Shown here: piece by piece, positions 6,201-55,254 of the stretch
Layout: every line of letters begins with the position of its first letter
Numbering within the stretch: the first letter of the stretch is position 1
Assembly (NCBI GenBank): GCA_964016885.1
Contig: OZ024741.1
Coordinates: 239,444,001 to 239,508,000 of the forward strand
DNA: 64,000 nt
Source: Eledone cirrhosa
Taxonomy: Eukaryota
Direction: 5' to 3'
Made by a program: the position numbers and the translations under genes
The notes under the pieces: generated by a model
What the model was told of the DNA's origin: nothing
The model's database searches: none
Seen by the model: only the letters and a program-made list of their open reading frames with translations

Positions 6201-6405
6201 CTCTGCCCCTGATGTTATCCTCAGAAATTAGAATTCCAAATATTCCACCTGAAAGAAAAAGATTTAATATATTAATGTGAAGTGAATAGAGTGTTATAAA
6301 CATGGAAACAACATTATACTGTAGCTCCTCGTGTTCTCAATGTGATGTAGAAATGGACTGTATACATATATCTATATATCTATACATATATATATACACA
6401 TACAG

Positions 6406-19661: not shown

Positions 19662-19892
19662 CTCTGCTCTTGATGTTATCCTCAGAAATTAGAATTCCAA
19701 ATATTCCAACTGAAAGAAAAAGATTTAATATATTAATGTGAAGTGAATAGAGTGTTATAAACATGGAAACAACATTATACCGTAGCTCCTCAAATTGTGT
19801 GTGGTCTGTATAATACATCACAAAAAAGAGCAAAGCTCATATTCTTAATATGACATAGAAATAGACCACATTATATATATATATATATACAC

Positions 19893-27187: not shown

Positions 27188-28899
27188 CTCTGGTCTTGGT
27201 GCTAATACAGTGTCCTGGGAAAGATGACTATGAATATTTAATCTGAAACAGAAACAATTTCAATATATTAATGGTGTCTGATATGTTAAGTCTTGTCTTC
27301 CATTTTTTTCCTCATGAAAACAAGTGTGCAAAATGATATATAAATGAAATCCGATTAAGTTTCTTGATGTGAATTTGTGTACTAAAACGGTTAATGCTCT
27401 ATTTTGGCAGAGACATGATGACAATCAAAACACCTGCACTGTTTATCTTTCACTTTAGTTTTATTATTTATCTGGTAATTAATCAATCATTCAGTTGATT
27501 AATATTAAAATATAGGCATAATAAGAAGCTTTGAGTTATCTCTCTTGAATATGAAGTAATTTCAGATATTACACCATTTTCAATAAAACAAAGAAACATC
27601 AGATTCTAAATACTATAAGATCCTGAAAAGGTAGTATACAAATCAACATCATAAAGATATTAACCAAAAATAGTAATAATGTAATATAGTTATGAGTTAT
27701 CTTTTGTGTATTCTGTAAAACTGAACCAGATTACAGATTGAAATTTCCCAATTATTATAATCTATATTAAACAGTATTGACAAGATATCTATTTACTAAC
27801 TGCTATTGATAAATTCAGATATATATACTAAACTGAATAACATTTGATATTGTTAATATTACCACTTCAACAATTCTTCTCTCAGAAATAACATATTTTG
27901 TTAAAACCTGAAGTTCAAATAAAGTTATAATTTTAACATCTTGGATGTCACCTTAAAAACAAATTATTTAGACTGCATTCACTACATGATTCTCCTATTT
28001 GTTATATCAGCAGTTTAAGCCTTTTCCATTTTGTTTATTTATGTAAAAAATTTATGAAATTAGAATTAAAATATGAAACAAGAGATCATGTTTTTTCTTT
28101 TATTACAGTACTTGAGTACAATAAATTGTGACAGTATTAATAATTAACATTTTACAACAGATAGAATATTTGTCACAATTAGTACATGAATATTGTTCAT
28201 GCAGAATTAAGGCTACAGATTCATTATATCTCATCTTCCTAAATGTTACTAAAATTTATAACAGGAAATTATAGAAATATCATGGATATATTTGGCCTGT
28301 TATCTAAAATGTATTAATGATTGTATATTCAAAACACTAAAGATATAACATATTTGTATATATAATTTCAATCAAATCAATAAGACATTATAATATGAAG
28401 CTAGTCATCAGTAGACATATACACAGAAATAAAGACGTTTTCTTGTATGTATAAAATTATAGAATTGTGTAGAAACAAAATTTATTTATTTGAGTGTCTC
28501 ATATTATTAACATTAAACCTACATTATTGTATATATGTCAATGGTATTCTTGTTCAATACTTAGTCTATAATAAGACCATAAAATATATAACAGAATAAT
28601 ACAGTAAAAATATATAACGTAATGTTAAAATATAATTAAGATAAATATTGTAAATACATCAAAGATGACAGCAAATATTTCCAGAAGTATGTTATATAAA
28701 ACTACAATTGAACATATATTCCTCTCCCACTGTTTCTTACAAAATACTTGATAGCCATGTTGGTAAAGAAGACATTCAATGAGAACTAACACAGATCTAA
28801 TATGGCCACCATTACAATATTATATTTTGATGTTATAATATAGCTATATATGAAGTTATTATTTTACATGACTAAATAAATAAGCATGATAAAACTTAC

Positions 28900-29685: not shown

Positions 29686-32600
29686 TTAACTAGCAACAAC
29701 ATCTGGTGTTGAAGGTAACTGTCTCTCTGGAGGTTTCACATATCTGTCTTGGTAATGGTCTCTCTCATTGTTGCTTGACACATCAGGTGGGACACCATAG
29801 ATACCTGAAATAAGTACATCAACTCAACTTACCACATAGATCACAGACAGACAATAGATATTTACTGACATTAGTTATCAATCTTTTGTCAACTGCATAC
29901 ACTGGACTAAGATATAAAATGATCATTAAAGAAGTATTTTATCAATCCTTAGAAATCATCATCAGATGAGGCTAATAATTGTTTCTACTTTAGGCACAAG
30001 GCCAGCAATTACCCAGTGCATTACTGGATGAGGCTAATAATGTCATACGTATCTGTTTGATATATACATCATCAGTGTAATGTATGTTTTTTCATGCTGT
30101 CATTAGTGGGATGAGTTCAGACAGAGATCTACAGGCAGATGCCCTTCTTGATAGTGAACCCAACACTTTTTGTAAGTAAGGTACAATTCTTTGCACATCT
30201 AAGCACTGTTCAACTAGAGCTTTCTATACATGGAACATAAACAAATATCCCCAAAAGCAATGAGTCCATGAAATGAGAAGAAACAAACACAAACACATAT
30301 AAACACATAAAAAACATATATAAAGGCTTCTTTATGTTTCTGCCTACCAAATTCATTCATAAGGCATTGTTGATCTGAGGCTATAGTAGAAGACATTTGT
30401 ATAATGTGCAGTGGGATAGAATCTAACACCAAATGGTTGCCAAAAAGTTAATAGCTAATTTTCATAATATTGATAAATAATCGTTTCTTAATCACTAGCA
30501 TTGGACATTATTTAATGAATGAATGCATGAGTGAAATTATTTTACCTGACATTGCTGGTATTTCTTCATACTGTCTACTTGACCTTTCACTCCAGCACTG
30601 TCCGCTACTCTTATGACTGGTTAATGTATCAGTGGGATAGTTAGAAGATGGTCTGTTGTCTCCATAAGATGTCACCTCTATAGGTTGACTGTATTTCTGC
30701 TGTAAAATATTGTAACAAGTTAGAGAGCAAGGATTGAATTTTTGAATGTAGACTTAAAATATCTTCAATTTCTAGCTAAAAATGGGTGTTAAAATATTGG
30801 ACCAATATAAACAAAAACATCAATTCTATAGATCCTCATCTGACCACTTTCATTCATACCATAGAAAATGTATCTAGTACAATTTATTCTGAGGATTTAG
30901 ATGTTGCAAAAAGTGATTTTAAAGCTTAACATATTTCGGAAAGATATCTAGTAATACAAGCTATGTCAATCAAAGGGTTGAAAGGATTCATTGTTGTGTC
31001 AACAACATAATCTTACATGTAATGGTGCAACAATAAAACGTATCCAGTACACCCAAATAAAGTGGTTGGTGATAAAAAAGGAAACCAGATGTTGCAACAA
31101 TATCAAAATTGGAATATATACTAGCAAGATATGGTTCCTGGGTCATCTGAGGGAACAGTAGTTCAGATTAAATACTGACTTGGTCTGTAATAACCCATTT
31201 AACCTATCTTATCAAGGGAAAATAGGCATTAAATGATAATTGTTTCTACTTTTGGCACAAGGCCAGCAATTATCCCAGTGTATTACGACCCCGTAAGGAT
31301 GAAAGGCAATGTTAACCTCGGCGGGATTTGAACTAAGTTCCTAAAGGGAAGTAACTCTTTCCTGCTAAGCATGGTGTCCGACCCTCTACCGATACCGCCA
31401 ATCCACCGCCCTTTGCTGTAAATGATAATGGTGATCCCACAGAAGAAAAAAATAAACAAAGCACTTTAGGCCTTCCTTTATTGGTGATAGTCAAAATTTA
31501 TATTGTGAGGGAGTTGTTGGTACAAAATTGGTGTCATAGTAGTCGGGGAAATTCACTGGTTACTATGCAGAAATACATTTTACAAAGGTATCAGAATTGT
31601 AAAACATAGTGTGGGTCCACAATGGTAGCTAAAATCCAATTGAGAAGTGTTAAGTTATTCTAGCTAATAATTAAGTGATTCTGGTTCTACAATATATGAA
31701 TACAACATTGATCCTCATGTCAGTTGCCTTGTTGGGAATTCATTGACCAACAAGTTACAAAGAGCAACTCATAGATTACCTAACAATTGAAAAGAGTACA
31801 AAATACATTTATATTTCTAAATTGTGATACATTATCAACCAGATATTCTAAAAAAAAAAATATTCACGATTAAAAAGTGGACATAAATTGGTAATTTAAG
31901 AAGTAAACATGAAATTTATGATATTCAATTATATTGTTCTTAATTTACAGATAGTGAAAAAACAAATCGTTTACCTTTGTGGATTTTTGAAGAGATCTGC
32001 TCATTGTTGATGTCTTCCAGTCTTCAGGATAGTAATGACTTCTAGATTGACTATATCTGTCTGATATCTCTCCTCGATTACCTGACATCACAGATACACT
32101 GTTGTTACCTTGATAGATCAACTGTCTCATCTCATTACGACATTGGTATGCCTGTTTCTCTTCTGTTGTTCTAGCTGAGTTATTTCTCACATTGTTACAT
32201 CTCACAATACACAATGTTATAGAAACCACAATAGCTATAGATACTATCACAGCTGCTACTACAATGATAATCAACAATGTTGCATCTATTGTGTTATCAG
32301 TAGGTACATGAACAGCTGTGAACATTGGTGATGTCTTGTTACTAACAGTCAGTGTTAAAGAGACACTAGTTGTTGCTGACAGAACTGGAGTACCACTGTC
32401 TTTCACAACAAACTCCAGTTGATATGATCCAGCATCATTTTGGTAAACTGTGCGAGAGTAAGATAAGACACCAGTGAATGAGTCCAGTTTAAATAATTGT
32501 CTCTCATTACCTGAAAGGATTTCATACCTGAGAAAAGCATTCATGTGACTGTCTATATCAGAGGCTTTCAGAAGTGTGATGTCATTCTTACTTTGTGGAT

Positions 32601-34323
32601 GATAGTGTATATCAAGCGTGAAAGGGTCAACACTAGGAAATGTAAAATATGGAGCATTATCATTTTTATCTAATACTTCCACTTCAACATTCACTGTGTT
32701 ATTTAGAGATGGTGTTCCATTGTCTTTGACAAAAACCTCAAAGTCATAGAAATCTCTGTGTTCTCTGTCTAAAGATTGGTTTGTTGAAATAAAGCCAGAG
32801 TTGATAATCTGGAATGGTAGACGATATTGGTGTTTATTTCTCAGATGATAACTTAATTCACCTCCCTTACCAACATCTGGGTCTGTAGCATTGATAAAAC
32901 CAATAGGGAAATTAGCTTTGTCATTCTCATAGGTAAGGAACTTGAATGTATCTTTGGTAAAGTGTGGTTTTACATCATTCACATCTAACACTTGTATTGA
33001 GAGATCTTTATCAGTTTTGAGAGGAGGTAATCCTTTATCTTGACAGGAGACAGTGAAGTGATAATGTTCCTGTGTCTCTCTGTCTACTGCTTTCTTTAGA
33101 ACTATTTTATATTCTTTAGATCCCATTGACTGTAGTTTGAATGTATCATGTTTAATATTACAGCTGACCTCTCCATTGTGTCCAACATCATTGTCAGTGA
33201 CCATCACATAAGCAATGAAACTACCAACTTTGATATCTTCCAGAATGGTAGCTGTGTTGTGATTCTCTGTAGAAATATAGTTGACATCAATATTTGGAGG
33301 ATTGTTGTGTTGGTTGATAACATTTACCAGAACAGTTGCTATGGCACTGAGTGGTGGATTGCCATTATCTCTGGCTTCAATATATAATTTAAAAAATTCT
33401 TCATCAATTTCTGAAGATTTAGCTAAATATAATTTTCCTGTATTTTCATCTAAATCAAAATATTTTTTCACTTTCTCTGCAGTTTTTGTGGCAAAATAGA
33501 AAGATATTTTACCATTCCTACCAATATCTAAATCATTGGCAGATAATGTCACTACTGGAATATTCTTTTTATGTTCATGTTCTATAGACACATTGTAGAT
33601 ACTTTGAGAAAATTCTGGTTTATTATCATTTTCATCTTCTACAGATATTTTAACATTAAAAACACTTCGTTTTGGTGGAGTTCCTCCATCTTTAGCAATG
33701 ACTTCAATGTTGTAACTGTCTTTCTTTTCTCTGTCTAATTTCTTTTCTAAAATAATTTCTAATGTTGATATTCCACCAGCTTCCTTGGAAACACTTAATG
33801 CAAATTGCCCTTCATTATCTTTTAGTTCATATCTAATTAGGCTGTTCTCATATCCCACATCTTTGTCAACCGCATTGGGTATGGCTTTCTTCATACCTCT
33901 ACCATCTCCTTCCCTAAACACTAGTGTAATGTCTTTCTCAGGAAACTCAGGTTGGTGGTCATTGATGTCTTCTATTATGACTTTAATTTTCAATATCTTC
34001 ATAAATGTCTTGGATTTGTGAACAGCAACTTTAACTATTTCAAAACATTCTTTCTCATAACTACACACAGACTCAGCATCCAATGTCTGAACAGTGTACA
34101 GTTTACCTGTTTTTGTCACATTAAACAATTGTTCTCCCTTTTGTTGTAGTTGACTAAATGTAATTAAATCCTTATTTTTTAAGAAGGAGCTATCTGATGT
34201 CTGTAAGTCAGTAGCAATGTCCCCTACATAAGTATAGGGATTTCTCTCTTCTTTAACATGGTATGTGATATGTTCACTTAGATAACAGTGGAAGAAAGTC
34301 AGTAAAATACACAGAGATAACAT
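29686..34323 (-). CDS. Protocadherin g4; coding exons 34323-31975, 30699/30696-30546, 29804-29686
   Basis: Same architecture; ectodomain nearly identical to g1; 5'UTR acceptor AG at 34373-34372. Confidence 0.95.
30310..30440 (-). mobile_element. Degraded SINE head fragment in a g4 intron
   Basis: ctatagtagaagacatttg..gtgcagtgggatagaatc resembles the reverse complement of a tRNA-derived SINE head; absent from the other paralogs. Confidence 0.45.
31235..31415 (-). mobile_element. tRNA-derived SINE with Nin/Deu-like core
   Basis: - strand: A-box-like tggcggtatcgg, B-box agttcaaatccc, core gcctttcatccttacggggtcg; fragments also at ~29975-30030 and 62650-62790. Confidence 0.7.
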
Positions 34324-34556
34324 CTCTGCCCTTGATGTTATCCTCAGAAATTAGAATTCCAAATACTCCACCTGAAAGAAAAAGATTTAATATATTAATG
34401 TGAAGTGAATAGAGTGTTATAAACATGGAAACAACATTATACCGTAGCTCCTCAAATTGTGTGTGGTGTAACACATCAATAATACTCATGTTCTCAATGT
34501 GATGTAGAAATGGATTGTATACATATATCTTTACATACATATATATATATATATAT

Positions 34557-34685: not shown

Positions 34686-36581
34686 CAACGTGAGGACCAG
34701 AAACAGGAGGTATTCAAGATTGCGAGGCAGTGTGTCAGAGATAGTTGTGATGTCATTGGAGAGAAGTGTATCCGGAATGATAAAGGTGAGCTTGCCCTCA
34801 CAAGTGCTGAGAAGAAAGATGCATGGAAGAGTCATTATGATAGATTACTAAATGAGGAGAATGCATGGGAAGAAGAGACCCTACCCCACGTAGACCCTAT
34901 AGAGGGACCAGCAGTACAAGTCAGCGGCAGCGTAGTAAGTAAGGCAATCAGAGATATGAAGATAGGGAAGGCAACCAGTCCATCGGGTATAGCTGCCGAG
35001 ATGCTGAAGGCATCTGGGTCTGTAGGTCACACTATAACCACACGTATTGTTAACCAGGTAATACTAGAGGGGGCCATACCAAAAGATTGGTGCAGTAGCA
35101 TCATTGTCAACTGCTACAAAGGTAAAGGCGATGCACTAGATAGAGGAAACTATAGAGGTATAAAGTTGATGGACCAGGTCATGAAAGTAACAGAAAGAGT
35201 TATAGCACAGCTGATTAGGGACCGGGTGAATATAGACGAGATGCAATTTGGGTTTGTACCAGGGAAAGGCACCACTGATGCGCTCTTCCTTGTGAGGCAA
35301 TTACAGGAAAAGTACCTAGCTAAAAGTAAGCCACTCTACTTGGCATTTGTCGACCTTGAGAAAGCCTTTGACAGAGTTCCACGTGCAGTAATCTGGTGGG
35401 CTCTTAGAAAACTAGGAGTAGATGAATGGCTTGTGAAAGCGGTACAAGCCATGTATAGGGGAGCAGTCAGCAAAGTTAGGATTGGCAATGAGTATAGCGA
35501 GGAATTTAGCGTACAGGTTGGGGTCCACCAGGGCTCTGTTCTTAGCCCTCTCCTGTTCATCATAGTCCTGCAGGCAATAACGGAGGAGTTTAAGACCGGA
35601 TGCCCATGGGAACTCCTGTATGCTGATGACCTCGCACTCATAGCTGAATCTATGGTAGAACTAGAGAATAAATTCCAAACCTGGAAGCAGGGACTAGAGA
35701 GAAAGGGCCTCAAAGTCAACATGACAAAGACTAAGGTCCTTATAAGTAGACGAGAAAACAGAACCCAGATCCCCTCAGGGAAATGGCCTTGCTCAGTATG
35801 TAGGAAAGGTGTAGGTAGGAACTCCATTCTTTGCCCCAAATGCAAACAATGGGTACACAAGAGATGTAGCGGGATCTCAGGAAGCTTAATTAAGAATGTA
35901 GGATTCACATGCAGCAGCTGTGCTGAAACAGCAAGCAAACAGCCACAGGAAACAAGTACCACCAATCTCTGGGAGGGCCCTGTAGAAACAGTAGACAGCT
36001 TCTGCTACCTAGGTGACCGAATTAGCAACGGAGGTGGGTGCTCAGAAAGTACAATAACTAGGGTAAGAACGGGATGGAAGAAGTTTAGGGAACTACTACC
36101 ACTGCTAGCTGCAAAAGGCTTCTCCCTCAGAATGAAAGGCAGACTGTATGATGCGTGTATCCGAACAGCGATGTTGCATGGTAGTGAGACCTGGGCGCTG
36201 AAGGTGGAAGACTTACGTAGATTAGAGAGAAACGAAGCCTGCATGCTCCGATGGATGTGTAACAGTAATATACGTGAACGACAAAGCATAAATGAATTGA
36301 GAGAGAGACTGAGCATAAGAGGAATCAAATGCTGCGTGCAGGAGAGGCGGTTACGCTGGTATGGACATGTGATGCGTATGAAGGATGACAGCTGCATAAA
36401 AAGGTGCAGAGCACTAGAAGTTGATGGAAACCGCGGAGTGGGGAGACCCAAGATGACTTGGGATGAGGTGATAAAAGCCGACCTTACCCAACTACACCTC
36501 TCAAAGTCAATGACACACGACCGTGACTTCTGGCGTCACGCAGTAATACAGGGTACCCGACCTCCCATGGGTACATGCTGA
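34686..36581 (+). mobile_element. Second RTE-clade LINE (different subfamily), 5'-truncated, open RT ORF with PHD finger
   Basis: Same RT motifs as the 8833 element but clearly divergent; no stops over ~630 codons. Confidence 0.93.
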
Positions 36582-36611
36582 AGCATATAAACAATATGCC
36601 CCCCCCCCCCC

Positions 36612-36878
36612 CCACCGCAAGGTGGTCGTGGAGGTGCCACGGCAAAAAAGCACCCAGCCCACACTGTAAAGTGGACGTGTAGGCGCCACGAAAAAGCACC
36701 CAGCACTCACTGTAAATGAGGTTGGTGTTAGGAAGGGCATCCAGCTGTAGAAATCAAGCCAGATCAGTTCCTGTATGAGCAAGGCATGGTCAGCCGACCA
36801 GACACTGCCCACAACAGGACAACCCGTCTAACCCATGCTAGCGTGGAAGAACGGACGTAAAACGGTGATGATGATGAT
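36612..36878 (+). mobile_element. SINE-like element with (TGA)n tail
   Basis: cactgtaaatgaggttggtgttaggaagggcatccagctgtagaaa...acccatgctagcgtggaagaacggacgtaaaacggtgatgatg. Confidence 0.8.
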
Positions 36879-38222: not shown

Positions 38223-38261
38223 CATACACATATATATATATATATACACATCCATACATAC

Positions 38262-38294
<33 letters not shown>

Positions 38295-38375
38295 CACATA
38301 CATACATATATATATATATACACATATATATATATATACACATATATATATATACACACATATATATATATACAC

Positions 38376-38408
<33 letters not shown>

Positions 38409-38926
38409 TATATATACACACATACATACATATATATATATACACATACATACACATATATATACACATACATACATATATATATACACATACATACATA
38501 TATATATACACATACATACATATATATATATATATACACATACATACATATATATATATATATACACATACATACATATATATATATACACATACATACA
38601 TATATATATACACATACATACATATATATATATATACACATACATACATATATATATACACATACATACATATATATATATACACATACATACATATATA
38701 TATATACACATACATACATATATATATATACACATACATACATATATATACACATACATACATATATATATATACACATACATACATATATATATATATA
38801 CACATACATACATATATATATATATACACACATACATATATATATATACACATACATATATATATATACACATACATATATATATATATATACACATACA
38901 CATATATATATATATACACATACACA

Positions 38927-38964
<38 letters not shown>

Positions 38965-39190
38965 TATATACATACATACATATATATATATATACATACA
39001 TACATATATATATATACACATACACATATATATATATACATACATACATACATACATATATATACATACATATATACATATATACATACATATATATATA
39101 CATACATATATATATATATACATACATATATATATATATACACACATACATACATATATATATATATATACACATACATACATATATATA
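38223..39190. repeat. (TA)/(TACA) microsatellite
   Basis: Directly visible. Confidence 0.95.
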
Positions 39191-39782
39191 TGGTGGCTGC
39201 CAACTCGTTTTCGAGTACGGCCACTACTTTATATCCATGTAGGAGAACCCCTACCGATGCGCTGAACGAGTGTGACTTTTTAGTCCAGCCAGCGACTTGA
39301 AAACTCTGGTACAAACACTACACTTGTGACAATTACTGACACATAGTGCTGGGCCCATGGTACCATGTGACGACAAGTGCAGAGAGATCTCCAGATATAA
39401 AGCAATGCCTGTGCCGTGAAGCTTTTATAGTGAGCAAAGGCACTGCACAAAGCCAGTCCCACTCTCTTAACCAAGATGATATTTACCAAAAAGAAGAACA
39501 AGTCAACATCATTGGATACCATCAGGGTTGCAGGTGTTATATCAGAGTTTTCCTTCTCCTAGAATTCTGCCTTGACAAAGGCTAAGGGGTCATCTCTCCC
39601 GGTGATTTTGGATGGCCATTGACTCTTAAGAGCTCCTTTGCCCTTTGACAGGTTTTGTTTTTAGTCCTGCAGGATGTCCAAAGTCACCCTCCTCACCAAG
39701 AAACCTTGGTGGGGTTGCCAGTTTAGTCGCCAACGACCCGACCATGGGACAGGTTGTACTGGGATACATGTTACCAGTAGCA
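39191..39782 (-). mobile_element. Internally deleted (bipartite) RTE-like element
   Basis: - strand has an RTE 5'UTR-like ctaggagaaggaaaactctga motif (recalled, not searched), then [23 protein letters not shown] and a 3' end like that at 11553. Confidence 0.55.
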
Positions 39783-39808
39783 CATATATATATACATACA
39801 TATATACA

Positions 39809-39840
<32 letters not shown>

Positions 39841-40729
39841 CACATACACACATATATACATACATATATATATACACACATACACATATACATACATATA
39901 TACATACATATATATATACATACATATATATATACATATATATATATATACATATATATATACATATATATATATATACATATATATATACATATATATA
40001 TACATACATATATACATACACACACACACACATACACACACACATACATATATATACATATATATATACACACATATATACATATATATACACATATATA
40101 TAGATATATATATACATACACACATATATACACATACATACACATATACACATACATACATACACATATATATACACACATATACATATATATACACACA
40201 TATATATATATATACATACACATATATATACACATACATATATATACACACACATACACATATACACATACACATACATATATATATATATACACATATA
40301 CACACATATATATACACATACATATATACACATACACACATATATATACATACACATATATATATACATACACATATACACACATATACACATATACATA
40401 TATATACACATATATATATACATACACATATATATATATATACACATATATATATACATACACATACACATATACATACACATATACACATACATACATA
40501 TACATATATATACACATATATACATACATATACATATATATACATACACATATATATACATATATATACACATACATATACACATATATATATACACATA
40601 CATATATATACACATATACATACATATATATATACATATATATATACATACACATATACATATATATATATACATATATATATATATACACATATATATA
40701 TATATATATACACATACATATATATATAT
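39783..40729. repeat. (TA)/(CA)/(TACA) microsatellite
   Basis: Directly visible. Confidence 0.95.
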
Positions 40730-40810
40730 GTAGGAGGTGAGTTTTATTGTAGTACAATAAAGCAATGCAGATATCGGATAAGAAGCACTCTACAGTTTGT
40801 AGGACTGGAG

Positions 40811-41152
40811 TATACATAATATAAGATCAAAAGATGGCCAAAGGAGCTCCATGCACTTCACCATGCGCACCCCAAAAACAAACACCACCATGCAACAACA
40901 CCCGTGTCCCCATCAGACAAAACAGGAGAACATGACACGAAGGCCAAAAACACTTGTGGATAGCGCAGTCCCAAATCAACATGTTGATCCAAAACTGCAC
41001 CATCCACAAGCGCCCCCAGCCCCCACATCATGCTCTCCCGCTCCACCCGATGAAAACACAAACACCATTGCACGATGATGTTTGCCCCCGAAATGCGCAC
41101 AACAAAACACATGGAACTCCCTCAACCATCTCTTGATCCCACATTATATATA
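40811..41152 (-). repeat. Gap-free palindrome; all mismatches A/C on + (G.U pairs in - strand RNA)
   Basis: Centre at 40981/40982 (atcaacatgttgat); position i pairs with 81963-i, checked by hand along the whole arm. Confidence 0.9.
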
Positions 41153-41242
41153 TACATATATATATACACATACATACACACATATACACATATATATACA
41201 TACACATATACATATATATATATATACACATACATATACATA

Positions 41243-41980
41243 TATTTTACTCTTTTACCTGTTTCAGCCATCCGGCTGAGGCCATGCTGGGGCACCGCCC
41301 TTGTTGCTACACATTTTATCTCCAGCCTGTATAGGTTGGCCACTGGTGTAGGAGGGAGTTTGTTGCTGCTGCCCTTAGGTTTCCCTCGTGTCTTGCTGTG
41401 GGCTCATCCGGGATAACAAGGTGTCGAGATGTTTCCTAAAGACATCCACCTCCACGTCATGCAAGTCTCGCAGATGCCTCGGCAGCTTGTTGAAGAGTTG
41501 AGGGCCCTTGAATCCCAGCTCCTTATTCTAGATGTGGAAGACGGGACCTTTGGCACCACACAGTGACGTCCTGTTCGACGGTTGGTCCAGCTCCCAATGC
41601 CAAAGTTTGGTGCTAGTCCCTCCAGGATTTTCCACATGTAGATCACTGCGTATCTCTCCCGTCTTCGCTCCAAGGAGTAGAGGTTCAGTTCCTCCAGCTT
41701 CTCCCAGTAGCTTGTCTCCCTCATCTTGGCAATCCTCTTGGTGTAGCTTCGCTGGATTGCCTCAAGCTCCGTGGTTAGTTTGACACTATGGGGTGACCAC
41801 AGCTGGGAGCAGTAGTCCAGGCGGCTTAGGACAAAAGTCCTCCACAGTGTCAACATGGTGTCTCGATCTCTTGTAAGGAAAGTCCTCAAGATCCAGCCAG
41901 CGAATCGTCTACATGTTGTCGCCACCTTCATGATGTGTGAAGAAAAAGATGCATCATCGCTCATGTCTATGCCCAGGTCT
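41243..41980 (-). mobile_element. 3' fragment of a CR1/L2-group LINE
   Basis: - strand [32 protein letters not shown]; short 3'UTR ending gctgaaacaggtaaaagagtaaaa. Confidence 0.8.
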
Positions 41981-42182
41981 ATACATATATACATACATAT
42001 ATACATACATATACATATACATACACATATACATACATACATATATACATACATATATATATACATACATATACATATACATACATATATATATACATAC
42101 ATATATATATACATACATATATACATACATACATATACATATACATACATATATATATACATACATACATATATATACATAC

Positions 42183-42216
<34 letters not shown>

Positions 42217-42274
42217 ACATATACATATATACATACATATATATACACACACATATATATACACACATACATAT

Positions 42275-42339
<65 letters not shown>

Positions 42340-43006
42340 CATATATATACATACATATATAGATATATATATACATATATATATATACATATATATACAC
42401 ATATATACATACATACATATACATACATATACATATATATACACATATATATATACATATATATACATAAACATATATATATACACATACATACATATAC
42501 ATATACATACATATACACACATATATATATACATATATATACATACATATATATACATATACATATATATACATATACATATACATACATATACATATAC
42601 ATATATATACATATATATACATATATATATATACACATACATATATATACATATACACACATACATACACACACATATATATATATACATATACACACAT
42701 ATACATATACATATACATATATATACATATACATATACACATATATACACACATATATATACATATACATACATATACATATATATATATACATATACAT
42801 ATATATACATATATATACACACATATATATACATATACATATATATACATATACACATACATATATATATATATATACATATATATACATATACATATAT
42901 ATATATATATACATACATATACATATACATATACATATATATATACATATACACATATATACACATACATACATATATATATATACATATATACATACAC
43001 ACATAT

Positions 43007-43041
<35 letters not shown>

Positions 43042-45947
43042 CATATATATATACACACACATATACATATATATCTATACATATACATACATACATATAT
43101 ACACACACATATACACACATATATACACATATATATATATACACATACATACATATATATATATACACATACATACATATATATATATACACATACATAC
43201 ATATATATATATACACATGCATACATATATATATATACATACATACATATATATATATATATACACACATACATACATATATATATATACACACACATAC
43301 ATACATATATATATATATATACACATACATACATATATATATATACACATACATACATATATATATACACATACATACATATATATATACACATACATAC
43401 ATATATATATACACATACATACATATATATATACACATACATACATATATATATATACACACACATACATATATATACACACACATACATACATATATAT
43501 ACACACACATACATATATATATATATACACACACATACATATATATATATATACACACACACATACATATATATATATACACATACATACATATATATAT
43601 ATACACATACATACATATATATATATACACATACATACATATATATATATACACATACATACATATATATATATACACATACATACATATATATATATAT
43701 ACACATACATACATATATATATATATACACATACATACATATATATATATATACACATACATATATATACACACATACATACATATATATATATACACAT
43801 ACATATATACACATACATATATATATATATATACACATACATATATACACATACATATATATATATATATATACACACATAAATACACATACATATATAT
43901 ATATATATATACACATACATAAATACACATACATATATATATATATATATATACACATACATACATACACATACATATATATATATATATATACACATAC
44001 ATACATATATATACACATACATACATACATATATATACGCATACATACATATATATACACATACATACATACATATATATACACATACATACATATATAT
44101 ACACATACATATATATACACATACATACATATATATACACATACATACATATATATATATACATACATATATATATATACACATACATACATATATATAT
44201 ACACATACATATATATATATACACATACATATATATATATACACATACATACATATATATATACACATACATACATATATATATATACACATACATACAT
44301 ATATATATACACATACATACATATATATATATACACATACATACATATATATATATACACATACATACATATATATATATACACATACATACATATATAT
44401 ATATACACATACATACATATATATATATATACACATACATACATATATATATATACACATACATATATATACACATACATATATATATATACACATACAT
44501 ATATATATATATATACACATACATATATATATACACATACATATATATATATATACACATACACATATATATATACATACATACATATATATATATACAT
44601 ACATACACATATATATATATATACATACATATATATATACATACATACATACACATATATATATACATACATACATACACATGTATATATATATACATAC
44701 ATACATACACATATATATATACATACATACATACATACACATGTATATATATATACATACATACACATATATATATACATACATACACATGTATATATAT
44801 ATACATACATACATACACATGTATATATATATACATACATACATATATATATATACATACATACATATACATACATATATATATATATATACATACATAC
44901 ATATATATATATATACATACATATATATATATATACATACATATATATATATATACATACATATATATATATATACATACATATATATATATATACATAC
45001 ATATATATATATATACATACATACATACATATATATATACATACATACATATATATATATACACATACATACATATATATATATATATACACATACATAC
45101 ATATATATATATACACACACATACATACATATATATATATATACACACACACATACATATATATATATACACACACACATACATACATATATATATATAT
45201 ACACACACACATACATACATATATATACACACACATACATACATATATATATATATACACACACACATACATATATATATACACACACATACATACATAT
45301 ATATATATATACACACACACATACATATATATATATACACACATACATACATATATATATATATACACATACATACATATATATATATACACATACATAC
45401 ATATATATATATACACATACATACATATATATATATACACATACATACATATATATATATACACACATACATACATATATATATATATACACATACATAC
45501 ATATATATATATATACACATACATACATATATATATATATACACATACATACATATATATATATATACACATACATACATATATATATATATATACACAT
45601 ACATATATATACACATACATATATATATACACATACATATATATATATATATACACATACATATATATACACATACATATATATATATACACATACATTT
45701 ATATATATATATACACATACATTTATATATATATATACACATACATTTATATATATATATACACATACATACATTTATATATATACATATACATACATTC
45801 ATATATATACATCTACATACATTCATATATATACATATACATTCATTCATATATATACATATACATACATTCATATATATACATATACATACATTCATAT
45901 ATATACATATACATACATTCATATATATACATATACATACATTCATA

Positions 45948-45985
<38 letters not shown>

Positions 45986-46431
45986 CATATACATACATAT
46001 ATACATATACATACATATACATATACATACATATATATATATATATACATATACATACATATATATATATATACATATACATATATATATATATACATAT
46101 ACATACATATACATATACATACACATACATATACATATACATACATATATATATATATACATACATATATATATATATACATATACATACATATATATAT
46201 ATATACATATACATACATATATATATATATACATATACATACATATATATATACATACATACATATATATATACATACATACATATATATATACATACAT
46301 ATATATATATACACATACATACAATATACACATACATACATACACATACATACATATATATACACATACATACATATATATACACATACATACATATACA
46401 CACACACACACACATACATACATATATATAT
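41981..46431. repeat. ~4.4-kb complex microsatellite
   Basis: Directly visible; sub-domains with variant units. Confidence 0.95.
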
Positions 46432-49400
46432 GATGGCTGCAAAATCTGTTAAGAGTATAGCAAACGCTTGTCAGATTCAGGTGTGTGACACTCATATATG
46501 GCTTTTCAAGCCTGCTAGAGACTTGCACTCTTTCGCACATTGAAAACAACTATGGATCTCCCTGGCCTCAGGTCTTGCATCAAGTTGCCTGTGAACCTTC
46601 ACAATACCATTGAGATCATAGTTCAGTTTCTCTTTGAACATGGTTGTGACTGTGGCTCCTGGGACCAGATTTGCTCAAGAAAATTTTTCTACTCTCAGGG
46701 CACTGCAATTCAATAGAGACACCAATCATTTCGTCCATCTTCCACGTAAGCATGGGTTAGACGGGAGTTGTCCCACTTGAGGCAAGGTAGGTCGGGTGAC
46801 CGTGTCTCGCTCATATAGGACTATCTGGCAGGTTTTCTACGGCTGGATGCCCTTCCTAACACCAACCACATTTACAGTGTGGAACTGGGAACTTTTTACC
46901 GTGTTACCTACACGGCCACATTACAGCGTGGACTGTGTGTTTTATATTTATATATATATATACACACACCAGGGGTGAAGGGTCCGTGCATGCAACACTT
47001 GCAGTGCATGCGTTATAGAATCTTGAGTTGAACAATTGCGTCGGTTGAAGCAAGCAGAATTTTGGCTGCTTACTAAATCGTAGACACAAAAAAAGATAAC
47101 ACACACACATACACACAAACACACGACAGCTTTGGGGAAAGCAGAATTTTGACAGCTTACTAAATCGTAGACACAAAGATACACACACACACACACTAGA
47201 TAACACTTCATGCGGCTTTGACCGGGAGGGTCATTTAGAGGGAATCGGGGCGATTGGACTGCATGACCTGCTTTCCAGATTACCCTTTGCCACAGATATA
47301 CACATATATACATGCAGGGTATCCAAAAAAATATATACATATTTATTAGAATGCTATTGAAGTGTGTATATATAGTTTGTGTGTGTGTGACCAATTCACA
47401 GTAACAATGGAATAATTTTCAATTTTCCTTTGCACAGTTTTACATTGATTGTACAAAATTTAAGATTTGTGGATACAAACCATTCGCAATTTTATTGCCT
47501 GTCTATTACAATAGTAAACTCACTAACATCTCTAATTTCTAAGGTAGATTACTTATTGAACAAACTAACACAGCAGCATTGTAAACATGACGATGACTAA
47601 ATCTCATCAGATTTAGACGTATTTCAGCAGATTATTTAATCAAACTTCAACGTATATTATTTATATATCACATAGGTAATTAAATTTGATTGTATCAATT
47701 AATGAGATTTTAATGGAAAATACTAGGGTAGGAAATTATAAAAATATAAAAACGATTCAATGGGAAATTAGTAGGAATTATTTAATTACCTCCCCTCTGT
47801 ATACTACTAAGTTCAACAAAATTACATGTTTAACAAAACAAAGCTTATATACTGTAATATATGACAATATATATCTATTGACTTATGGTTAATATCAATA
47901 AATTCCTATTTTAAATTGAAAAAATATTTTAGTTTAACATTTTTGTTCAATAAATCACCTTCCTAAAATAAAACAAACTATTTTGTAATCTGGTCATATA
48001 TTTTGGTACGTTTGTTTTTGAGAGGTTCCTAGCAATAGTTTGTTGTATTTGTTATATTCATTTATATTTGTGTTTATCAACAGCATTATATTGTTAATGT
48101 TATTCTGAAAGAATTGTGAGCAATTTGTAATGTTATTTATGTGTGTATATATATATATATATATATTAGGTGTCACAACAAAAAAACACACAGTGTGGCC
48201 GTGTAGGTAACACGTTAAAACCTCCCAGTCCACACTGTAAACATGGTTGGTGTTAGGAAGGGCATCCAGCCGTAGAAAACCTGCCAGACAGTCCTCTACG
48301 AGCAAGACAACCAATCTTGCCTCAAGTGGGAAAATTACCGTCCAAACCCATGCTAGCGTGGAAGATGGACGTTAAACGATGATGATGATGATATATATAT
48401 ACTCTACCTCAAGTCAAGTTATAATCTAAACATTTTGGATGTCTCCTTAAATAGAAATAATTCTTTAAAAGGATATCTTTCAACAATTAATTCATTTCTT
48501 TACTATACAAACAGCTTGCTTATGTGTTAAAAACAAATCTATCATTAAAATAATATTAAACCAGACATCAGAAACCACTTTTTTATAACAGCTTAATTAT
48601 ACTAAATTGCTATATAAACATGTTGCTTATGTGTGAAAAAACACTTTTATATAACAGGGCTTAATTACATTAAATTAAGACAATATTTGGCTGAAATGTT
48701 TTAATTTTGCATATAAAACCAAATATATTTTGTATGAATAACTAACTAATTTTAAATCATTAATCCTAATGTAAGATATATTTACTGAAAATAAATAATT
48801 TGATAAGCATTTGTTTCCTATAATTGAAAATAGATGTAACAACATGTAAAAATCTAAAACAAATTCTAAATTTAGTCCTGTAGATGAATATTTTTTATAT
48901 CAAACCTACTAGATTGATGTTATTTAGCTCTATGTAAGCTCCTATACAGCAGACATATCAAAAGCATTTCAGTCATGCCTCTATTGTTCAAAATATTGTA
49001 CCTTTAAGCATTACAAAAGAAAATATATAACAGTTCAGGGATTTGTGTATGAATAGATAATGGGCAAGAGTTAATATAGATACCAATATTTGTTACAAAG
49101 ATTTAAGGCCACAGATTCCTCATTTCTTTGCTAAATTGACATTCTCTAATTAAAGAGAAAAAAAATCAATATCATTGGTAATTATTGAAATATCATAAAT
49201 ATGTCTATGTTACCACAAATGTGTTAAGATACATATATATGCATAAGTAAATCATCCACTGATATATATAAGGCATAATAGTAACTTAAATCATTCAAAT
49301 GAATAATTTACAGAAAAGAAATTAATAAGCCTAATTTTAACATGAAATTATAGAAATCGTTAGATTTATACATAAAGATTTACACACATTCACAGATTTC

Positions 49401-52400
49401 ATGTATACACACATACACATAATCTATATGAAAATAATATTTCATTACCAATTTTCTTATATACAGTAATGTAGGTTTTACATAAATATTGTTAATAGAT
49501 ATTTCAATGATATTCTAGTTCAATATTTAGTATGTACTAAGACCCTACAATGTCTGACTGAATAATTCAGTAAAAATATATAATGATGAGTTATGTTAAA
49601 ATGTAATAAACAAGATAAATATTGTATATACATCAAAGATGACTGCAAATATTTTCAGAAGTATGTTATATAAAACTACAATTGAACATATATTCCTCTT
49701 TCTCTATCACTGTTTCTTACAAAATAGTTGATAGCCATGTTGGTAAAGTAGACATTCAATGAGAACTAACACAGATCTAATATGGCCACCATTACAATAT
49801 TATATTTTGATGTTAGAATATAGCTATATATTAAATTTTTATTTTACATGAATAGACAGATAATATAGTATAATAGAACTTACATTCATTGTGTAAAATC
49901 CTTTGTTATAAACTGTGAGTTGGTCCCAATGTTCTGTTAATGGTTGTCTGTGTCACTGCTGCTATGGTGTGACAATGGCTTCATGTTGATGGAATAGTGT
50001 TGGTAGTGAGTCAGTGGGAACCAGCAGTTCCTCTCAGTCTTTGGTGTATGTGTGATGTTTACTGAGTGTGAGTGTGTGTGAGAGAGAGAGAGGTGGGGGA
50101 GGGGGAGGCTTACTCCAGCCTCACTCAGACTAGATGTGTTTCCCCTCACAGAGAAGAGGGAGAGAGAGAGAGAAGACACTATATCAGCTCCACTAACAGT
50201 CAGCCATAATATGTCTATATAATACCAACATGTCTGATGTAGAGAGACTGACATAGAAATACTTAGAAAATAGAGGGTATATTAACAAAATATGGCTGAT
50301 GTTAATGTGTGTGTACTATAAAATGTATTTTAAATGTTGACAATAATAGTTAGTGTGTCTGACCTAATTATAATTTAACTCTTAAATTCAAGATATATTT
50401 AGGAAAATTTAGAGATGTTATGTTAACTATCTAAAATATATTTTCTAAAATGTTACCTATGTAAAATATATAATTTATTCATATAAAAGTTAATTTATAT
50501 TTTGAAATTTGAATAATAATTCCCTGGGAATAAAGTCTATTTATTATGATAGAGGAATTTACCCACTTTCATAATTCCATTATAGTAAAGCAAACATATG
50601 ATGATGATGATGAATATTATCAACTAACTAATATATTTCTATAATTTTAAATATTGTGTTAATGTTGAAGGTGATATTTCTGTTGTGTTAACTCCTCAGT
50701 CTGACTTAACTAGCAACAACATCTGGTGTTGAAGGTAACTGTCTCTCTGGAGGTTTCACATATCTGTCTTGGTAATGGTCTCTCTCATTGTTGCTTGACA
50801 CATCAGGTGGGACACCATAGATTCCTGAAACAAGTACATCAACTCAACTTACTACATAGTTCATATAGATGCCATATATTTTCTGACTGAAATTAGTAAT
50901 CAATCTCTTGTTTATTATATTCACTAAGCTAAGATATTTAATGTTCTTAGATGTAATCATTTCCATGATATAATGATTAAAGGTTGACTGAGTATATAAG
51001 TCAGTTCCGTTAATGGTAATACACCCAGTGTATGATGTATACAGTGGTATATCTGTGTAGAAATATATATTCACTTATTATAAAATTTATAAAGATTGAT
51101 AGAAATAATATCAGATTATTTCATAATTGTGAAAATTAGAAATTATGAAAATCAAATAATGAAATTAATAACAGATAAGGATAAATAAAATTGTTTTACC
51201 TGACATTGCTGGTATTTCTTCATACTGTCTACTTGACCTTTCACTCCAGCACTGTCCACTGCTCTTACGACTGGTCAATGTATCAGTGGGATAGTTAGAA
51301 GATGGCCTGTTGTCTCCATAAGATGTCACTTCTATAGGTTGACTATATTTCTGCAGGACAATATAATTACAATAAAGAACATAAAGATATCATTTAGGAC
51401 ATTATACCTGAAATATACCCAATATCTAGATATTGATGTGTACATGTATACTATTGAAATATTGGACCATTATGTATAAAAGAATCAGTTGTATAGATCC
51501 TGTTTATTTGATCATTTGTCATTATACCAAATAAAATGTATCCAGTACAGGTTACAAATAATCATTTCATAGCTTACTCTGGATATAAACGTAGATGTAG
51601 CTTTTTAGGTCTATGTTAATGCATATGATATAAGTGGATGAATAAGCATGTTTTCAGTGCAAAGTTGAATTCATAGCAGGCAGGAAATTTGGCATGTTTA
51701 TCAACAGAAGTAGTTTCCAAAACAATCTGAAATTGTGTAAAATAGATGATACAACAAAGTTAAAATCCTATTGACAAAGTTAATCTTGCTATAAATTACT
51801 AGATTCTGGCTCCACAGTGTATGACTGCATCATTGATTCAAGGCACTCATTAAAATCCATTTCCAGAAAATACCTTACCATTTGGATTATTGTGTTTCAA
51901 AAGTAAATCATCATAACCTTATTTTTTTCAACCAGATATATTCTATACTAAAACCAATCAGAAAGTAAACGGACTACCTACATTGGTAATTTTAAACAGT
52001 AACTGCAGAGTTGAAAATATTCAGCTGTTTCATTTTTAATTAAATGTTATTCAACAGATAGAAAATATTAGATAGAGCTTACCTTTGTGGATTTCTGAAG
52101 AGATCTGTTCATTGTTGATATCTTCCAGTCTTCAGGATAGTAATGACTTCTAGACTGACTATATCTGTCTGATATCTCTCCTCGATTACCTGACATCACA
52201 GATACACTGTTGTTACCTTGATAGATCAACTGTCTCATCTCATTACGACATTGGTATGCCTGTTTCTCTTCTGTTGTTCTAGCTGAGTTATTTCTTACAT
52301 TGTTACATCTCACAATACACAATGTTATAGAAACCACAATAGCTATAGATACTATCACAGCTGCTACTACAATGATAATCAATAATGTTGCATCTATTGT

Positions 52401-53400
52401 GTTATCAGTTGGTACATGGACAGCTGTGAACATTGGTGATGTCTTGTTACTAACAGTCAGTGTTAAAGAGACACTAGTTGTTGCTGACAGAACTGGAGTA
52501 CCACTGTCTTTCACAACAAACTCCAGTTGATATGATCCAGCATCATTTTGGTAAACTGTGCGAGAGTAAGATAAGACACCAGTGAATGAGTCCAGTTTAA
52601 ATAATTGTCTCTCATTACCTGAAAGGATTTCATACCTGAGAAATGCATTCATGTGACTGTCTATATCAGAGGCTTTCAGAAGTGTGATGTCATTCTTACT
52701 TTGGGGATGATAGTGGACATCAAGAGTGAAAGGGTCAACACTAGGAAATGTAAAATATGGAGCATTATCATTTTTATCTAATACTTCCACTTCAACATTC
52801 ACTGTGTTATTTAGAGATGGTGTTCCATTGTCTTTGACAAAAACCTCAAAGTCATAAAAATCTCTGTGTTCTCTGTCTAAAGACTTGTTTGTTGAAATAA
52901 AGCCGGAGTGGATAATCTGGAATGGTAGATGATATTTGTGTTTATTTCTCAGATAATAACTTAATTCACCTCCCTTACCAACATCTGGGTCTGTAGCATT
53001 GATAAAACCAATAGGGAAATTAGCTTTGTCATTCTCATAGGTAAGGAACTTGAATGTATCTTTGGTAAAGTGTGGTTTTACATCATTCACATCTAACACT
53101 TGTATTGAGAGATCTTTATCAGTTTTCAGAGGAGGTAATCCTTTATCTTGACAGGAGACAGTGAAGTGATAATGTTCCTGTGTCTCTCTGTCTACTGCTT
53201 CCTTTAGAACTATTTTATATTCTTTAGATCCCATTGACTGTAGTTTGAATGTATCATGTTTGATATTACAGCTGACTTCTCCATTGTGTCCAACATCATT
53301 GTCAGTGACCATCACATAAGCAATGAAACTACCAACTTTGATATCTTCCAGAATGGTAGCTGTGTTGTGATTCTCTGTAGAAATATAGTTGACATCAATA
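46432..53400. repeat. Segmental duplicate of ~11553-18620
   Basis: Near identity through TE remnants, exon-1 block, tail exons and introns, up to EC4 of g5/g2. Confidence 0.9.
49884..50268 (-). promoter_or_regulatory. Putative promoter + non-coding exon 1 of g4
   Basis: Conserved block; GTAAGT donor at 49883; predicted intron 34372-49883. Confidence 0.6.
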
Positions 53401-54434
53401 TTTGGAGGATTATTGTGTTGGTTGATAACATTTACCATCACAGTTGCTATGGCACTAAGAGGAGGGATGCCTCCATCTCTGGCTTCAATATATAATTTTA
53501 AAGTGTTTTTTGTGTTACTTTCTAATGGTTTTATTAAGAAGATTTCCCCAGTATTTTCATCAATATTAAAGTATCCTTTCATCTTCTCATTAGTTTTCTG
53601 ACTAAAATCGAATGATATTTTACCATTCCTGCCAATATCTAAATCAACGGCAGATAATGTCACTACTGGAATATTCTTTTTATGTTTATGTTCTATAGAA
53701 ACATTATAGATTGTCTGGGCAAATTGTGGGGTATTATCATTTTCATCTTCTACAGATATTTTAACATTTAAAATACTTTGTTTTGGTGGAGTTCCTCCAT
53801 CTTTAGCAATGACTTCAATATTGTAACTGTCTTCTTTTTCTCTGTCTAATTTCTTTTCTAAAATAATTCTTACAGTTGATATTCCATCTGCACGTTTTGA
53901 AACTGATAAAGAAAAATGGCCATTATCTTTTTTTAACTTATATGTAATTAAACTGTTTTGATACCCAATGTCTTTGTCTACAGCATTTTCTATTGATCTT
54001 TTGGTGCCTTTTCCATCAGTTTCAGAAAACTGTATATTGACTTGTTCAGTTGGAAATTTAGGTTCGTGGTCATTGATGTCTTCTATTATGACTTTAATTT
54101 TTAATATCTTCATAAATGTCTTGGATTTGTGAACAGCAACTTTAACTATTTCAAAACATTCTTTCTCATAACTACACACAGACTCAGCATCTAATGTCTG
54201 AACAGTGTACAGTTTACCTGTTTTTGTCACATTGAACAATTGTTCTCCTTTTTGTTGTAGTTGACTGAATGTAATTAAATCCTTATTCTTTAAGAAGGAG
54301 CTATCTGATGTCTGTAAGTCAGTAGCAATGTCCCCTACATAAGTATAGGGAATACTCTCTTCTTTAACGTGGTATGTGATATGTTCACTTAGATAACAGT
54401 GGAAGAAAGTCAGTAAAATACACAGAAATAACAT
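50706..54434 (-). CDS. Protocadherin g5; coding exons 54434-52083, 51350-51200, 50824-50706
   Basis: Same architecture; 5'UTR acceptor AG at 54493-54492. Confidence 0.95.
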
Positions 54435-55254
54435 CGCTGCTCTTGGTGTTAATACAGAGTCCAGGAGAAATTACAGCTTCAAATATTCAATCTGAAATTA
54501 AATGATTTAATATATTAATGTGAAGTTAATGGATTTCTATAAATAAACAACATTGTATAGTAACTATCAAATTGTTTGTTATAACAGTCACATTATAAAG
54601 CTCACAATATATTTTTTACATGATGTACCTGTGGACCAGGTTTATATGATCAATTCACAGAAACAAATGAATAATTTTCTACCTCTTTTACAATTTTAAA
54701 CCCATTTAAGTTGTTTGTACAAAATTTAGATATTTACATTTTGGTATTATTTGTTGAAACTTTTTTTGGCAGTTTCCGTGTGTTATAACTATTATGTTAG
54801 AAACGCAAATTATGAGTTTCCTCCCTAGTGTGTAGCACAGTAACTAAACAGAAATAACACTTCTTTTATAGGTTGTATTATTTGTACAGGCCTGGAGAGG
54901 GATGGGCCCGCCAGGCTTAAAATGCCCAAGAAACGCTGTATGTCAATACGCGGTCCCTACGATTATCAAGAGTTATGGGACCATGCATACATACATACAT
55001 ATATACATACATTATTTGTACAGCAACACTTTGTGAAGATAGTGTGAAAAACTAATACCATAAAAATAAATGACAGTAATGTTTTAATATCTGCTGCAAG
55101 TCATTTTCTGTTGTGTATATTGCAAAACACATACATACACAGATATATATATACATATTTTATAATTAAATATTAATTAATATCTAATATTTAAACATTT
55201 CAATGAATGGATAAAATGTATAGATAAAATATCAATCAGAGAAGCAATATTACA

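Follow-up and report, generated by a model that had tools for sequence, protein, structure and literature searches.

How can an inverted repeat without a loop or an indel carry dozens of mismatches that are all of one kind? This question is raised by a palindrome at positions 40811–41152 of a 64,000-nucleotide stretch of the Eledone cirrhosa genome (C2:239,444,001–239,508,000 of the 3.0-Gb assembly G000; hereafter, the window), which lies between exons that we take to be protocadherin exons. The palindrome is an inverted repeat of a Penelope-like element, and as such it is ordinary for its family; its mismatches are not. Comparison with unedited relatives led us to the view that the window holds a copy, at least 2.8 kb long, of a locus on contig C11, and that this copy very probably arose when ADAR hyper-edited a read-through RNA of the locus, which was afterwards reverse-transcribed into a TA-rich array within the protocadherin cluster.

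One-strand A-to-G changes in the window palindrome

The arms of the palindrome (symmetry centre 40981/40982) formed 171 pairs, of which 104 were Watson–Crick and 67 were A/C on the plus strand, and no other mismatch type was present. This bore out a first-pass annotation, made from the letters alone, that had counted about 65 mismatches by hand, all A/C, in arms of ~170 bp. As that annotation had also proposed, the minus-strand RNA was predicted to fold into one unbroken stem of Watson–Crick and G·U pairs (−231 kcal/mol, z = −22), whereas the plus-strand fold was interrupted (−101 kcal/mol). Relative to a natural unedited copy of the same family (L002), the window showed 66 A>G changes on the minus strand, two 1-bp gaps, and no other substitution. 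These changes affected 66 of 122 As in the stem, whereas all 21 As of the unpaired tail next to it were unchanged (p = 9e-7).

The changes depended on the 5′ neighbour (U, 22/32; A, 30/45; C, 8/28; G, 6/17), with U/A differing from C/G (p = 1.4e-4), while a comparison of G alone with the rest gave p = 0.12; before a 3′ G, 7/12 were changed (p = 1.0). The lower rate after C or G agreed with the first-pass annotation, although its statement that surviving minus-strand As almost never follow U was overstated, as 10 of 56 do. In its accessible text, PMC5625713 describes upstream G depletion as a conserved ADAR motif and reports that the downstream-G preference is reduced in octopus. The ancestral base was T/A at all changed sites, so that the changes were not the G-to-A type by which APOBEC editing is recognised.

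The unbroken stem of the minus strand would also be in keeping with a G·U-rich hairpin RNA under selection, such as a small interfering RNA precursor, or with C-to-U deamination of a GC-rich ancestor. We consider either explanation scarcely credible. The ancestral base was T rather than C, the family and the donor described below are perfect AT-rich palindromes, which refutes the C-to-U proposal, and the patterns differ among copies. Moreover, the changes lower the predicted stability of the hairpin from −288 to −242 kcal/mol even when the edited base is read as G.

The Penelope-like family behind the hairpin

The hairpin is an inverted pseudo-long terminal repeat (pLTR) of a Penelope-like element (PLE), probably of the Hydra clade. 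A DNA search of the assembly with the hairpin returned 555 candidates; in the 40 that were scored, family matches were nearly all full-length with ~80% identity to the window hairpin. The 20 other distinct loci that were fetched were near-perfect palindromes, each differing from the window by 63–68 T>C, with other changes amounting to a handful at most. The AT-rich source that the first-pass annotation had predicted by reverting the Gs, and for which it had suggested a search, thus exists both as a family and, with the same flanks as in the window, as one donor locus. All fetched sister loci were flanked on both sides by (TA)n and, on one side, by a unique tail of 80 bp, and a 26-letter motif of this tail occurred in 8,469 exact copies in the assembly. 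Tandem and inverted pLTRs, the tail, and the (TA)n target were all present in the family, and a head-to-head inverted arm, which is known from other PLEs, was found in 25 of 60 loci not chosen for edits, 7 of which had been picked for their paired arrangement.

Longer copies carry an 808-aa frame, which lies between tandem pLTRs in the full element L027. The predicted protein contains reverse transcriptase (RT)-like FD and YRDD motifs followed by a GIY-YIG-like IYEC...YFGST motif, giving an RT and then a C-terminal nuclease. Its RW(I), DKT, CxCx5C, CxxC, and CxH motifs compare with the Hydra-clade criteria in the accessible text of PMC8557442 (RWK, DKT, CxCx5C linker, CxxC, CxH, and no CCHH), although the third RWK residue differs and CCHH was not searched for separately. 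The 808-aa frame gave nothing significant against Pfam and PDB, and PF00078 was carried by 1 of 37 of its homologues. A putative type I hammerhead motif was recognised in the pLTR of L002 from stems I and II together with a stem III that is palindromic; Rfam returned only hairpin-shaped matches under the gathering score for the unedited copy, and no hammerhead family. By these predicted motifs, the domain order, the hammerhead, the pLTR, and the tail, the element appears to match the Hydra clade. The hammerhead motif of L002 is absent from the window arm, where edits changed its core from CUGAUGA to CUGAUGG (40916–40910) and from GAAA to GGGG (40873–40870).

An unedited donor locus on C11

An unedited locus with the same neighbours and junctions as the window was found at C11:126.7–129.5 kb. 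On the minus strand, its order is a ~603-bp repeat (element X), a TA array, the Penelope-like tail, a perfect Penelope-like hairpin, a second array, a piece of a long interspersed element (LINE), and a further array, and X is truncated as in the window. The LINE piece identified this locus: its best match outside the window was C11:126,702–127,435 (99% identity), its length was 734 bp in both places as against ~755 in most other copies, and two variants among 11 copies were common to these two only. The unedited hairpin lies 90 bp from the donor LINE piece. In the region C11:122–131 kb, we observed many 1-bp indels relative to the family, and the consensus quality looks lower there.

The donor comparison separated paired from unpaired sequence. 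T>C changes (A>G on the minus strand) affected 140 of 522 donor Ts in the self-pairing parts, comprising the hairpin (63/119) and the TA arrays (69/367 between X and the tail, and the short array), against 3 of 386 in the unpaired parts (p = 2e-33; Table 1). Other substitutions amounted to 6 in about 2.8 kb. The proposal of ADAR hyper-editing followed by retro-insertion was therefore supported: A>G on one strand, restricted to sequence that forms double-stranded RNA (dsRNA), with an ADAR-type 5′ bias.

The extent of the copy was judged from the arrays. Because the array between X and the tail kept 100 of 102 donor Cs, against about 60–76% in three mismatched controls, we regard it as a true copy of the donor. 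Alignment to the donor did not exceed the controls for the array left of X or for most of the right array of 4.4 kb; therefore, the copy is bounded at the end of X (39193), where clean homology stops at the 3′ end of a retroelement, and at some point beyond 41979. The same end of X is retained in 14 of 14 truncated copies, some of which were ascertained by it, so that the 3′ end of X coincides with that of the edited strand.

These results revised two points of the first-pass annotation. The notion of a foldback RNA that was retro-inserted stood insofar as an edited hairpin RNA was probably copied, but the unit was not the hairpin alone. Its attribution of the edited strand to protocadherin sense did not hold, as the RNA would be a read-through of the C11 locus rather than of the protocadherin locus. 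Retro-insertion of the hairpin alone by a Penelope RT starting from its tail was likewise ruled out by the donor comparison, since the copy passes the tail and runs on to the end of X.

The arrays of the window deserve separate mention. All 21 long alternating arrays (6474–46432) are TA/CA mosaics with C on the plus strand and almost no G; in other loci, 38 of 97 mixed arrays were as C-skewed as those of the window. This skew is partly inherited from X-type tails, although one array gained 69 Cs relative to the donor. One-strand mosaics occurred on both sides in 1 of 25 unedited loci. In-place editing of all window arrays along the protocadherin strand was ruled out, because the arrays of the donor and the flanks of X already carry C on one strand and because the neighbouring pieces of the nest are unedited.

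A second donor–copy pair

Donors were compared for two pairs, the second being an edited hairpin on C1 (L046; 284.01 Mb). The unique junction at its hairpin centre was found at one other place, C3:318.63 Mb, which we take as its donor. Over 1,606 columns, L046 differed from this donor by 91 T>C and 4 other substitutions. In the flanks of L046, which are RTE fragments, 25 of 61 Ts were edited where the donor has an inverted partner, as compared with 2 of 206 elsewhere (p = 2e-16). The partner lies ~3.5–4.5 kb away at the donor, and only 35 bp of it are present within 21 kb around the copy. The edits thus track a partner that lies at the donor, which places the editing on a long donor RNA and not on the DNA at the new site, and this pair is the strongest argument for that conclusion. 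The preference for a 5′ U or A and the depletion of G were found in this pair as well. The edited strand differs between the window hairpin and that of L046, so that either strand can be edited.

At the 5′ end of the L046 copy (positions 4467–4760 of that locus), the arrays turn G-rich and a short sequence at the junction occurs twice, the pattern expected of a 5′ inversion. Five loci carrying X were considered as donors of L046 and were ruled out on comparison.

The same data bear on the possibility that the C11 locus was duplicated at the DNA level and that adenines were then deaminated in place by ADAR, in the DNA of an RNA:DNA hybrid or in an extruded DNA hairpin. ADARs are known to edit DNA in RNA:DNA hybrids (cited in the accessible text of PMC12925331), the 21 long window arrays are C-biased on the same strand, and target-site duplications are not readable. 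However, the L046 edits follow an inverted partner that is nearly absent around the copy, a hybrid would span the tail and X, both of which are unedited, T>C is not in excess in the adjacent RTE or in other pieces of the nest, and the arrays at the donor and around copies of X already show the same strand bias. Together with the mirrored copies described in the next section, these observations make deamination of DNA very improbable.

Edited copies across the genome

Eight short degenerate motifs were used to search the assembly for further edited copies, yielding 109 rows with overlaps, and 40 loci were fetched, covering every row with at least two Cs and a part of the single-C rows. Ten single-change loci (L056–L065) carried no more than two of either change per pLTR segment and stand outside the subsequent count. 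At least five private A>G or T>C changes were found in 17 of the remaining 30 loci and the window taken together, amounting to 376 such changes against 31 others. In a background of 60 loci not picked for edits, each locus had at most three private A>G and at most three private T>C. Edited copies thus make up, as a lower bound, about 0.2% of tail-bearing copies. With respect to pLTR position 87 (window ~40896), we observed that the motif forcing this site gave 37 rows, as compared with 3–21 for the other motifs; the site lies in the predicted hammerhead stem II, and monomer RNAs may therefore be lightly edited there.

Whole hairpins edited on one strand were found in the window, L046, L050, L051, and the tail-to-tail repeat of L054; in these five, 192 of 460 paired sites were edited as compared with 1 of 117 unpaired sites. 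Single edited arms were found in L047–L049, L053, L107, and L109. Across the other loci, with mirrored duplicates dropped, editing followed the 5′ neighbour in the order U (93/165, 0.56), A (126/256, 0.49), C (27/153, 0.18), and G (13/98, 0.13; p = 1e-21). A comparison of edit patterns among copies, as the first-pass annotation had suggested, revealed no common G·U pattern: none of the pairwise comparisons with the window was identical, and no other copy repeated the window pattern. In L054 (positions 4114–5058; C1:120.06 Mb), the tail is edited where it forms the tail-to-tail inverted repeat (11/34 versus 0/11), and the distant partner arm is unedited.

Five mirrored copies (L052, L106, L108, L116, and L008) carried the same sense-strand A>G in both arms, with 29 shared sites and 1 unshared. 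The edits therefore existed before the second arm was made, and such mirrored edits could not arise from one strand of a finished palindrome, as deamination of DNA would require. From these copies it would seem that a single edited RNA, primed at pLTR ends 172 and 253, served as the template for both arms; alternatively, the mirrored class may derive from a lost DNA parent with the same pattern. The accessible text of PMC8557442 names the formation of Penelope inverted repeats as an open question, and that of PMC11167929 describes, in keeping with such priming, two internal initiation sites and extension on both strands for a lizard PLE in vitro. Shorter edited copies have their ends at the two usual pLTR ends and were likely made by the Penelope-like RT itself.

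A further locus, L055, is a mosaic of edit patterns, which suggests template switching on an edited hairpin. Its positions 3134–4162 (C10:50.89 Mb) contain two adjacent hairpin units, and one arm carries antisense-arm edits of the other unit over pLTR 32–71 and sense-arm edits over 112–145.

Support for the edited sequence and for host editing enzymes

Public sequencing runs were compared for 4 of the 23 listed. Run X1, whose library type is not on record, yielded a 308-bp contig (depth 3.6) that matched 40808–41115 with one other letter, so that the edited sequence is present in the assembly and in one public run, and the word "fixed" in the first-pass annotation applies in this sense; runs X5 and X21 did not cover the edited core. 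In run X3 (type likewise not on record), short contigs over 40819–41121 resemble the edited form and are not assignable to the donor. At 41081, where the window has T, all 6 X3 contigs covering the position carry C; if X3 is RNA, these contigs would mean that the family is still edited. Adenosine-deaminase domains (PF02137) exceeded the cut-off at several loci of the assembly. The PF02137 family also covers ADAT and ADAD.

A consensus error in the hairpin, or an edited cDNA read that entered the assembly, could mimic the window pattern, and the many 1-bp indel errors in the donor region, the unrecorded library type of X1, and its missing coverage of the junctions would fit such an artefact. 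We nevertheless give this explanation very little weight, about as little as DNA deamination: the 20 other best-match hairpins of this assembly are near-perfect, distinct patterns with a biological neighbour bias occur at 17 loci on several contigs, the independent contig agrees at all but one of 308 letters, and the copy lies within a 416-Mb contig between protocadherin exons.

Proposed mechanism

Hyper-editing of a read-through RNA followed by reverse transcription would account for these findings as follows. The donor would have been transcribed on the strand that reads the LINE piece, the hairpin, the tail, and X. In that RNA, about half of the As in the hairpin and a fifth of those in the arrays were converted to G in the resulting copy, with the unpaired parts left intact; ADAR is the probable enzyme. 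The RT of a retrotransposon would then have been primed at the 3′ end of X, or close to it, and have run at least 2.8 kb upstream (5′ transduction), reading inosine as G. With 6 other substitutions in about 2.8 kb, the insertion is presumably recent, and it would have occurred in the germline.

With respect to the RT, a Penelope enzyme starting at its own tail does not explain the window copy, which extends beyond that tail. We slightly favour an enzyme recognising the 3′ end of X. Any TA-targeting RT priming inside (UA)n is a less probable candidate, and an RTE with a long open frame located 2 kb downstream of the donor on the same strand is an unlikely one. The RTE of the window (34688–36876) is 99.7% similar to this donor RTE, a similarity that need not mean descent.

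Several observations weigh against this scheme. No RNA from the C11 donor was observed. For three T>C changes in the LINE piece, the donor has no partner within 30 kb, and no target-site duplication is readable, as both ends lie in TA/CA arrays. Element X as the driver of L046 was not supported, since X adjoins L046 but is absent from the position of its donor. Among the edited loci, L111 and L116 are marginal, and the hot sites shared among copies are inflated in number because the search motifs were derived from sites edited in the window. A 3′ G was weakly preferred in the pooled data (26/48 versus 233/624), being the highest of the four neighbours, with p = 0.12 in a smaller pool. Finally, X1 may be the sample of the assembly itself, and none of its pieces spans the junction into protocadherin DNA.

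Genomic setting of the copy

The features of the copy and its surroundings are listed in Table 1. The LINE piece is presumably CR1/L2-like, as judged by the resemblance of its translation, and element X, which we take to resemble an RTE 5′ untranslated region, is likely a non-autonomous LINE derivative. A first look gave 1,922 candidates for X in the assembly; it showed a weak C2H2 match below the cut-off (E = 0.004), Rfam gave nothing useful for it, and no autonomous partner was found among the 8 examined of 150 scored matches. The accessible text of PMC5786205 describes bipartite non-autonomous RTEs whose 5′ and 3′ parts match one autonomous RTE.

Table 1. Features in and around the edited copy (window coordinates)
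Feature	Position	Strand	Observation
Protocadherin exon left of nest (assigned by resemblance)	31945..34350	-	801-aa open reading frame with cadherin repeats
TA/CA array left of copy	38253..39192		Likely X tail or target DNA; alignment to donor not above mismatched controls (88 donor Cs retained, 29 lost)
Element X, ~603-bp repeat	39193..39779	-	3′ end is the left copy boundary; 0/154 donor Ts changed
(TA)n/(TACA)n array copied from donor, edited	39780..40730	-	868 matches, 69 T>C, 2 C>T
3′ tail of Penelope-like pLTR, unpaired, unedited	40731..40810	-	0/22 donor Ts changed
pLTR arm, sense on minus, hyper-edited	40811..40981	-	27 private A>G in pLTR-sense text; maps to both pLTRs of L027
Putative type I hammerhead motif of pLTR, core altered by edits	40854..40924	-	Predicted from pattern and stems in L002
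Inverted pLTR arm (pLTR 1–172, sense on plus)	40982..41152	+	37 private T>C in pLTR-sense text; edited as antisense arm of minus-strand RNA
Short TA array copied from donor, edited	41153..41245	-	8/36 donor Ts changed
3′ piece of LINE, essentially unedited, identifies donor	41246..41979	-	3/210 Ts changed
Long TA/CA array holding the 5′ end of the copy	41980..46432		First 100–250 bp align closely by eye; overall C retention near control
Protocadherin exon right of nest (assigned by resemblance)	52068..54470	-	800-aa open reading frame with cadherin repeats

The two exons in Table 1 belong to six near-identical tandem exons on the minus strand, the others being 3819–6227, 17295–19688, 24800–27259, and 59705–62164. 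Two of the six units share an ancestral nest at an RTE end in the same position. The RTE-type LINE of the window lies on the plus strand, is young and 5′-truncated (99.2–99.8% similar to other copies), and shows no excess of T>C; its relative L041 encodes an RT and a PHD finger.

Implications and comparison with known systems

The donor-and-copy evidence indicates that A-to-I edits can become nuclear DNA of an animal via endogenous retroelements. Since one event amounts to ~140 mutations, a copy of this kind gives the appearance of 20% divergence and would bias estimates of repeat age and of mutation spectra. Should the copies be of germline origin, each of them documents how active and how specific ADAR was in the germline or the early embryo. 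With a changed hammerhead core and a stem that should be weaker, the edited hairpin also matters for the question of whether mobility is hindered or promoted by editing, and the mirrored copies make the formation of Penelope inverted repeats testable from sequence alone. The insertion itself looks like neutral debris, and we claim no function for it. More tentatively, ADAR and retrotransposition together may act as a recurrent germline mutagen in this lineage, in which editing is heavy: kilobase-long edited read-through RNAs would be written back throughout the genome, (TA)n would turn into strand-biased TA/CA mosaics over rounds, edited exons could be transferred, and edits would barcode single RNAs, with both Penelope arms made from one RNA primed at two internal sites.

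Retroprocessing of edited transcripts is known from plant organelles and kinetoplastids, where it follows C-to-U or U-indel editing and leads to gene replacement. These systems likewise turn an RNA edit into a DNA change via reverse transcription, but they involve neither ADAR nor new nuclear insertions. At the RNA level, hyper-editing of repeats is highest in octopus and includes a lizard Penelope and a palindromic frog Harbinger (PMC5625713), and repeat editing is ubiquitous in squid RNA (PMC9068888), according to the accessible texts. The substrate class, the upstream-G depletion, and the Penelope targets are the same as here; in those cases, however, the edits occur in RNA over an unedited genome, whereas here they are in genomic DNA.

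The Hydra-clade PLEs of PMC8557442 share with the present family the domain order, the RW, DKT, CxCx5C, CxxC, and CxH motifs, the hammerhead, pLTR, and tail, the inverted 5′-truncated copy, and the (TA)n target, and the accessible text of that paper makes no mention of their editing. The present family differs in having at least 8,469 copies, among which edited copies act as barcodes for the formation of the inverted arm. APOBEC-edited retroelements have been screened for in genomes (vertebrate LTR retrotransposons; PMC4866542 and PMC2873906, accessible texts), with none in 19 invertebrate genomes (PMC4866542). Those strand-biased hypermutated copies are also recognised against unedited relatives, but they show G-to-A from C-to-U on cDNA, not confined to dsRNA, as opposed to A-to-G confined to paired RNA.

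In the accessible texts, a study of L1 found no edits in L1 RNA (PMC5224506), and PMC5974252, PMC5786205, and bioRxiv 10.64898/2026.07.22.740005 contain no report of edited genomic copies. A full-text literature search did not find ADAR-hyper-edited endogenous retrocopies with donors; most subscription papers and supplements lay outside its coverage, so that absence from print is not established. In the literature covered, as far as its accessible text goes, fixation of such edits in DNA was documented only for infecting retroviruses, namely A-to-G hypermutated avian proviruses with nearly 50% of As changed in an inverted repeat (review, PMC12925331) and proviruses of bovine leukaemia virus (PMC8025556). 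Those cases share with ours one-strand A-to-G clusters, reaching nearly half of the As in an inverted repeat, that became fixed in DNA by reverse transcription. They concern infectious retroviruses in somatic or cultured cells, whereas the copies described here derive from endogenous non-viral elements and host read-through RNA, are 2–3 kb long, include edited microsatellites, and lie in a nuclear assembly together with unedited donor loci.
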